Shown in pieces: positions 2,102 to 2,623 of a stretch of 64,000 nucleotides of DNA (the first letter of the stretch is position 1; each line of letters starts with the position of its first letter). The position numbers were made by a program, and so were the translations under genes. The stretch is from the NCBI RefSeq assembly GCF_041248615.1, contig NZ_CP158426.1; one strand, written 5' to 3'. Source of the DNA: Escherichia coli. Lineage in GTDB: Bacteria > Pseudomonadota > Gammaproteobacteria > Enterobacterales > Enterobacteriaceae. The notes under the pieces are model-generated. The model saw only the letters and a list, made by a program, of their open reading frames with translations. It was not told the origin of the DNA and ran no database searches.

Positions 2102-2623
2102 ATGAAACATTCATTTGAAGTAAAACTTGCCGCTGTAAATCATTACCTGGCTGGTCATGCAGGCATCATTTCTACGGCAAAACTCTTTCAACTTTCTCAC
2201 ACCAGCCTCTCACACTGGATTAATCTTTTTCTTCTTCACGGTCCTCGGGCACTGGATTGCAGACACAAGCGTAGCTATTCTCCTGAAGATAAACTTTGCG
2301 TGGTTCTTTATGCTCTCGGGCATTCTGAGTCTCTACCCCGGGTAGCTGCCCGGTTTAACATTCCCAGCCACAACACGGTTAAAAACTGGATAAAAGGCTA
2401 CCGCAAATCTGGTAATGAGGCCTTTATCAGGCGCAGGAAGGAGAAAAGCATGACCCGTTCTGATGATACCCATGAAAACGAGGCAAACATGACGCCGGAA
2501 GAGATGAAGAATGAGCTGCGTTATCTTCGCGCAGAAAATGCATATCTGAAAGCCATGCAGGAGCATCTCCTGGAAAAAAAGCGCCAGGAGCTGGAGAAAA
2601 AACGAAAGTCATCCGGAGCCTGA
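2102..2623 (+). CDS. IS3-family transposase OrfA (HTH DNA-binding part)
   Basis: ORF 2093..2623; ATG at 2102 preceded by GAAGGTG. Ends just after the A AAA AAG slippery site with a leucine-zipper-like tail typical of IS3 OrfA. Confidence 0.8.
   Translation: MKHSFEVKLAAVNHYLAGHAGIISTAKLFQLSHTSLSHWINLFLLHGPRALDCRHKRSYSPEDKLCVVLYALGHSESLPRVAARFNIPSHNTVKNWIKGYRKSGNEAFIRRRKEKSMTRSDDTHENEANMTPEEMKNELRYLRAENAYLKAMQEHLLEKKRQELEKKRKSSGA
2575..2581 (+). promoter_or_regulatory. Programmed -1 ribosomal frameshift heptamer A AAA AAG (orfA to orfB fusion)
   Basis: In orfA frame the codons are gaa aaa aag; a -1 slip continues KKAPGAGEKTKVIRSLRCGHCQSDLLKAAGLARSTLYYQ... directly into the orfB frame. Confidence 0.75.

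Follow-up and report, generated by a model that had tools for sequence, protein, structure and literature searches.

The window, the 64-kb stretch of Escherichia coli DNA analysed here as a whole, carries a complete insertion sequence (IS) inside an rhs gene (Table 1). The element splits this minus-strand gene into a part at 1–2050 and the 5' part listed in Table 1, both of which are incomplete in RefSeq; after rhs come rpmE, encoding L31 (4690–4902), and priA (5033–7303).

By megablast against complete E. coli genomes, the element was 99.2–100% identical to features named "IS3-like element IS1397 family transposase", the ISfinder naming convention being >95% DNA identity. The region tested matched E. 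coli isolate NRZ14408 (NZ_LT599825.1) at 100%, and there the transposase is a two-piece CDS annotated by RefSeq/PGAP as "programmed frameshift", with boundaries corresponding to positions 2102–3450 of the window. Further IS1397 copies in RefSeq carry the same annotation, and they resemble the window copy over its whole length in identity, two-piece CDS, inverted repeats and 3–4 bp duplications. The identification uses these RefSeq-annotated features as the reference, and the ends of the element were set from the inverted repeats and five other copies. As judged from these comparisons, the known E. coli element IS1397, a member of the IS3 family related to IS150, is present here as an intact copy.

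The element shows the features of that family, namely a length within about 1.2–1.6 kb with imperfect repeats (5'-TG...CA-3'), a target duplication of 3–4 bp and overlapping ORFs in the 0 and −1 frames. The two terminal arms are 84% complementary (TGAAC...GTTCA) and were the only two such matches within the window. Duplications at other IS1397 copies were likewise 3–4 bp long (TGGC, TGT, TAGC and AAC). A scan of the element for promoters and terminators gave nothing above shuffle expectation.

Table 1 Features of the IS1397 copy and its surroundings (window coordinates; strand "." for features without orientation)
Feature	Position	Strand	Basis or remark
IS1397, complete copy (IS3 family, related to IS150), 1432 bp	2051–3482	+	99.2–100% identity; inverted repeats; five other copies
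Left terminal inverted repeat, TGAACTGCACCCCAAATGTTGGACA	2051–2075	+	25-nt arm
Right terminal inverted repeat, ending ...GTTCAGTTCA	3458–3482	+	25-nt arm
Target-site duplication GGT, left copy	2048–2050	.	directly flanks IS end
Target-site duplication GGT, right copy	3483–3485	.	directly flanks IS end
orfA, 173 aa, HTH DNA-binding protein, zero frame	2102–2623	+	ORF list; same ATG as PGAP start
SD-like AGGAG, candidate upstream stimulator	2559–2563	+	11 nt upstream of heptamer; fits rule of PMC4066793
Slippery heptamer A AAA AAG (predicted −1 programmed frameshift site)	2575–2581	+	sequence, register, clade invariance
orfB frame (−1 relative to orfA) after the predicted shift; HTH_21 and rve (DDE) catalytic part; open from 2515	2581–3450	+	
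Predicted 38-nt hairpin (CAGG..CUGGAGA / UC.AUCCGG..CCUG) with A-rich loop, candidate downstream stimulator	2585–2622	+	
5' part of rhs gene interrupted by the IS (context)	3475–4530	−	351-aa ORF; PGAP: DUF6531 domain-containing protein, incomplete

Insertion site and state of the copy

The documented target of IS1397 is the REP sequence or palindromic unit (PMC1525189). All five other IS1397 copies examined lay in the centre of classical REPs, in which a loop is flanked by GCCKGATGCGRCGC and GCGYCTTATCMGGCCTAC. The hallmark of the element, insertion in the central REP/palindromic unit of BIMEs, was not seen in the window copy, which lies in an rhs ORF; its target (flanks 2020–2050 and 3483–3510) is a REP-like imperfect palindrome that reads GCCGGATGGTGGCGC, ACC, ACCGCGCGGGCCGGCC on the minus strand. 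Whereas the other copies occupy true palindromic units, the window copy thus interrupts coding sequence at a REP-like palindrome, and its orientation relative to the GCCGGATG arm is the opposite one. The departure from the usual target is a property of the insertion site and not of the identity of the element.

Of 5426 complete E. coli genomes, a single one has the rhs::IS1397 junction, and that genome has 12 matching places. Such rarity indicates, on genome comparison, that the insertion is recent and was made by an active element. The initial annotation had suggested that the element is still functional, and in silico this gained support from its full length with intact ORFs, inverted repeats and target duplication, from the unique junction and from the candidate stimulators described below; the copy looks functional and recently inserted.

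Many other genomes hold only parts of IS1397. Some part of the element was matched in 3496 genomes, whereas only 1707 held at least 80% of it, so truncated remnants are widespread. One E. coli contig (strain SCPM-O-B-8794, 1450–2370; locus L040) carries a copy from which 193 bp are missing internally (IS positions 469–661); the loss takes in the entire frameshift region and leaves orfA and orfB sharing a frame. The copy also has approximately 1.4 kb of extra DNA at IS position 1115/1116. We considered this copy as a naturally fused-frame IS1397 and rejected it as such, since it is a deletion derivative with a second insertion.

Reading frames, heptamer and fusion protein

A cluster with 2287 E. 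coli members matches the orfA protein at 99% identity; an alternative start is possible at a GTG (2093) upstream of the listed ATG. The orfA-frame sequence at 2567–2587 reads CTC CTG GAA AAA AAG CGC CAG, and the codons across the heptamer (GAA at 2573, AAA at 2576 and AAG at 2579) place it in the canonical X XXY YYZ register. The heptamer reported by the initial annotation near the end of orfA was thus present as described, 13 codons before the orfA stop at 2621–2623. Because the matching RefSeq features are annotated as programmed frameshifts, the heptamer is, by correspondence with them, the already known −1 programmed frameshift site of IS1397.

The −1 frame contains no stop codon from 2515 to 3450 and overlaps orfA by 109 nt (2515–2623). 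It is open from the heptamer into orfB, as had been claimed, for 289 codons that encode the HTH_21, rve and rve_2 domains; since no stop lies between the heptamer and orfB, the objection that the initial annotation had foreseen to its own reading does not arise. Within the overlap, AAAAAAG at 2575 was the only X XXY YYZ heptamer in register. Counted over both strands, the window contains 28 copies of AAAAAAG against 14.4 expected, and from this count we estimate a chance frequency of about 2e-4 per position, which amounts to about 0.01 heptamers over the approximately 36 in-register positions of the overlap.

Translation with a −1 shift at 2581 gave a 449-aa OrfAB protein. In a profile search it matched the NCBIfam model NF033516 (IS3 family transposase) with 387.6 bits (cutoff 160), in a single stretch in which OrfAB residues 62–442 were aligned with positions 1–369 of the 369-position model, across the junction at residue ~160. 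This end-to-end match bears out the fusion transposase that had been predicted, and it is the outcome of the proposed comparison of the shifted translation with IS3-family OrfAB proteins. The Pfam domains HTH_28, HTH_21, rve and rve_2 were identified in OrfAB, and the DD(35)E catalytic triad is formed by D295, D355 and E391 in the motifs WVTD, HSDQG and NAVME, the second D and the E being separated by 35 residues.

Conservation and flanking elements of the site

The 221-nt frameshift region was present in 1720 of the 5426 complete E. coli genomes, at 5231 places, and the heptamer was unchanged in all six aligned E. coli copies, including the common variant with 98.2% identity. More distant members of the IS1397 clade, found by OrfA protein search, were 53–59% identical, and none fell between about 59% and about 90%. 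Relatives of intermediate identity (60–95%), wanted for covariation analysis, were also sought in plasmids and none was found there, the OrfA homologues jumping from about 90–99% to 59%. The clade alignment comprised eight distinct elements, one of them on a Pantoea plasmid.

All eight elements have G GAA AAA AAG CGC C in register, 44 nt beyond the point where the AENAYLK motif begins, and the −1 frame after the site has 270–291 open codons where the contig is long enough. The 14-nt block GGAAAAAAAGCGCC, which includes the heptamer, is the longest invariant run in this alignment, in which mean column identity is 81%, and Lys codons near the heptamer vary between AAA and AAG across the clade. 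With a 14-nt invariant block in elements whose OrfA proteins are only 53–59% identical, the heptamer is, on this alignment, conserved to a greater extent than chance would give. Part of the nucleotide conservation could reflect the double protein constraint on an overlap that codes in two frames.

Two kinds of flanking element are described for the IS3 family: upstream, an SD-like GGAG or AGGA 6–17 nt before base 2 of the motif, and downstream, a hairpin of 17–140 nt that starts 4–10 nt past the motif, has G-C or C-G as its first pair with three more pairs next to it, and reaches a stability of 7.6 kcal/mol or more (Sharma et al. 2014, PMC4066793). The upstream candidate in the window is AGGAG, and GGAG or AGGA is present in seven of the eight clade members. 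The same bases encode Q-E, so the conservation of AGGAG is not independent evidence of a stimulatory role.

The candidate downstream hairpin conforms to the published rules, with a start at +4 and a dG of −12.4 kcal/mol (0.326 kcal/mol/nt). Its ddG per nucleotide was 0.133 against a published floor of 0.09, it ranked 6th of 160 local windows, and the 3-nt spacer between heptamer and hairpin is at the short end of the usual range. In the common E. coli variant, G is replaced by A at the position equivalent to 2615, which turns a U.G pair of the CUGG/CCGG stem into U-A and preserves pairing. Compared with shuffled sequences, the IS1397 hairpin had a z value of −1.5. When the 55 nt past the heptamer were folded sequence by sequence, z was negative in all eight clade members and small (−0.4 to −3.0), and a rule-conforming hairpin clearly above local-background stability was present in only three of the eight. 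A conserved structure was sought with RNAalifold in the eight members; the consensus was weak (covariation term +0.69), no compensatory change close to the site was convincing, and we rejected it as proof of a conserved stimulator. The downstream structure that the initial annotation had proposed to look for is thus available in IS1397 as a rule-fitting hairpin, whereas its modest z value, the lack of covariation and the three of eight members above background leave its conservation across the clade equivocal. A role of the predicted hairpin as frameshift stimulator is plausible but unproven.

A second, 6-bp hairpin (CAGGAG-CAU-CUCCUG, 2558–2572) contains the SD-like AGGAG, ends 2 nt before the heptamer and can form in six of the eight clade members. 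The common E. coli variant has T for C at 2569, which replaces a G-C pair of this hairpin with G.U. It may attenuate the signal or be incidental.

Expression model and comparison with related elements

IS1397 very probably follows the standard expression of IS3-family elements, with OrfA made by normal decoding and OrfAB by a −1 slip at A AAA AAG, probably with help from the flanking elements. Most ribosomes on orfA would terminate at the orfA stop and yield the DNA-binding OrfA protein. A fraction would slip by −1 with two Lys-tRNAs on AAA-AAG (2576–2581), which would re-pair on AAA-AAA (2575–2580), the slip probably being helped by AGGAG upstream and by the hairpin that begins 4 nt downstream. 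The shifted ribosomes would continue in the orfB frame from G2581 and produce the OrfAB transposase, with a predicted junction ...LLEKK/APGAGEKTKVI... (junction peptide ...LLEKKAPGAGEK...) and with HTH domains and a DD(35)E catalytic domain.

All eight clade members keep exactly seven A followed by G in the ribosomal register, with no lengthening of the run, and this argues against transcriptional slippage, in which RNA polymerase would add one A in the A7 run (2574–2580) and so bring orfA and orfB into frame in the mRNA. The run in which the heptamer sits gives such slippage a possible substrate, and transcriptional realignment is described for some IS3-family elements in PMC6211511 and PMC5009743. 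The product (…EKKAPG…) would be identical, and the protein cannot tell the two routes apart. Efficient slippage by E. coli RNA polymerase needs about nine or more A/T, and the run of seven falls below this. In addition, the SD-like element and the downstream hairpin would be relevant to ribosomes only, and in IS150 this heptamer is an established site of ribosomal slippage, as cited in PMC4066793. We consider transcriptional slippage improbable, and ribosomal frameshifting at the heptamer is the preferred reading.

Still less probable is a slip elsewhere in the 2515–2623 overlap with the heptamer at 2575 being incidental. The overlap contains a second run, of six A, 16 nt downstream (GAG AAA AAA CGA, 2597–2602), and two distant Pseudomonas relatives without the usual heptamer (L066 and L070) have the similar CAG AAA AAA or CAG AAA AGG. 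We rejected this run as the slip site because it does not fit the X XXY YYZ register (AAA AAA after G) and varies within the clade (AAA AAA, AAA AAG or ACA AAA), whereas the 2575 heptamer is invariant and the sole in-register one in the overlap. Barely credible is the reading of the two ORFs as one transposase gene that was broken by a frameshift mutation and has decayed, with a coincidental heptamer and a dead copy. Some related elements do encode a fused ORF (in 11 loci both parts share a frame), and degenerate IS1397 copies exist (L040 with its 193-bp deletion and L096, "frameshifted"). Against this reading, the same two-frame arrangement and heptamer recur at thousands of E. coli places and in eight diverged clade members; the copy is also full length, has inverted repeats and a target duplication, and sits at an insertion unique to one genome, which implies recent movement.

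The main value of identifying programmed frameshifting here lies in annotating the element correctly: a single programmed-frameshift IS1397 transposase gene should replace the two separate ORFs, as in RefSeq, and the copy is best regarded as a mobile element that is probably active and that recently inactivated an rhs gene. Beyond annotation the finding matters little. Of minor interest to IS specialists are the landing of a REP-specific IS in a REP-like palindrome within coding sequence and the position of the frameshift site in the IS1397 clade, which lies 8 codons away from that in IS150 and other relatives.

This position was compared in 63 relatives with a −1 arrangement, drawn from 100,044 species genomes. 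Of the 63, 58 had A AAA AAG or A AAA AAA in register, and in more than 50 of the relatives listed the heptamer lies at the Y-L-K-K-L codons of the conserved ENAYLKK motif; relatives with this site span Bacillota, Pseudomonadota and Bacteroidota. At the usual position the IS1397 clade has Y-L-K-A/V/G (CTG AAA/AAG GCC), which is non-slippery, so the usual site is lost in all eight members, and its heptamer lies 8 codons downstream, at L-L-E-K-K-R. It is likely that the clade relocated its frameshift site, losing the Y-L-K-K-L heptamer and fixing a new one 8 codons downstream with different flanking stimulators. By parsimony, the site would have moved once, in the ancestor of the IS1397 clade. 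If true, this would be a natural case in which a recoding signal changed its place inside an overlap and both protein products were kept.

Other arrangements were also observed among the relatives. L066 and L070 (Pseudomonas endophytica and P. saliphila) have the −1 arrangement without an X XXY YYZ heptamer in the overlap and with CTA AAG GAG at the usual place, and in L071 the −1 frame is no longer open at the usual site. In six loci of P. asuensis, P. oryzihabitans and P. rhizoryzae (L003, L004, L006, L014, L042 and L045; 39–44% identity), the transposase is a single uninterrupted ORF that needs no frameshift.

Among the closest known elements are an unnamed IS3-family element on a plasmid of Pantoea sp. 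SO10 (NZ_CP040096.1) and seven metagenomic and Erwinia loci (L087–L093, including the duplicate L088). These share with IS1397 the displaced heptamer, GGAAAAAAAGCGCC and the absence of a Y-L-K-K site. They differ from it in sequence, with 52.6% (fusion) or 53–59% (OrfA) identity, and in their downstream hairpins, which have a different 3' arm, size and stability. In L087–L093 the orfA stop shares bases with an orfB-frame GTG (TAGTG), which gene callers take as the orfB start and which hints that OrfB might be made on its own by termination-reinitiation; at the orfA stop of IS1397 the sequence is CTGAGG, without a canonical start.

ISKpn1, which inserts into Klebsiella pneumoniae REP sequences (PMC1525189), resembles IS1397 in family, architecture and REP targeting. 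Its protein identity to IS1397 is 48.6%, and its heptamer lies at the usual Y-L-K-K-L position (L084).

For IS150, −1 frameshifting at A AAA AAG with a downstream stem-loop was shown experimentally (Vogele et al. 1991, as cited in PMC4066793). IS150 and IS1397 are alike in having the heptamer in the orfA/orfB overlap, the OrfA(HTH)-OrfAB(DDE) architecture and a downstream hairpin. The IS150 heptamer, however, lies at Y-L-K-K-L (TAT CTA AAA AAG CTG; L098, 1650–1690), whereas that of IS1397 lies 8 codons further downstream, and the IS150 hairpin (+7, 48 nt, −17.0 kcal/mol, rank 1 of 150 local windows) is the stronger of the two, compared with +4, 38 nt and −12.4 kcal/mol in IS1397.
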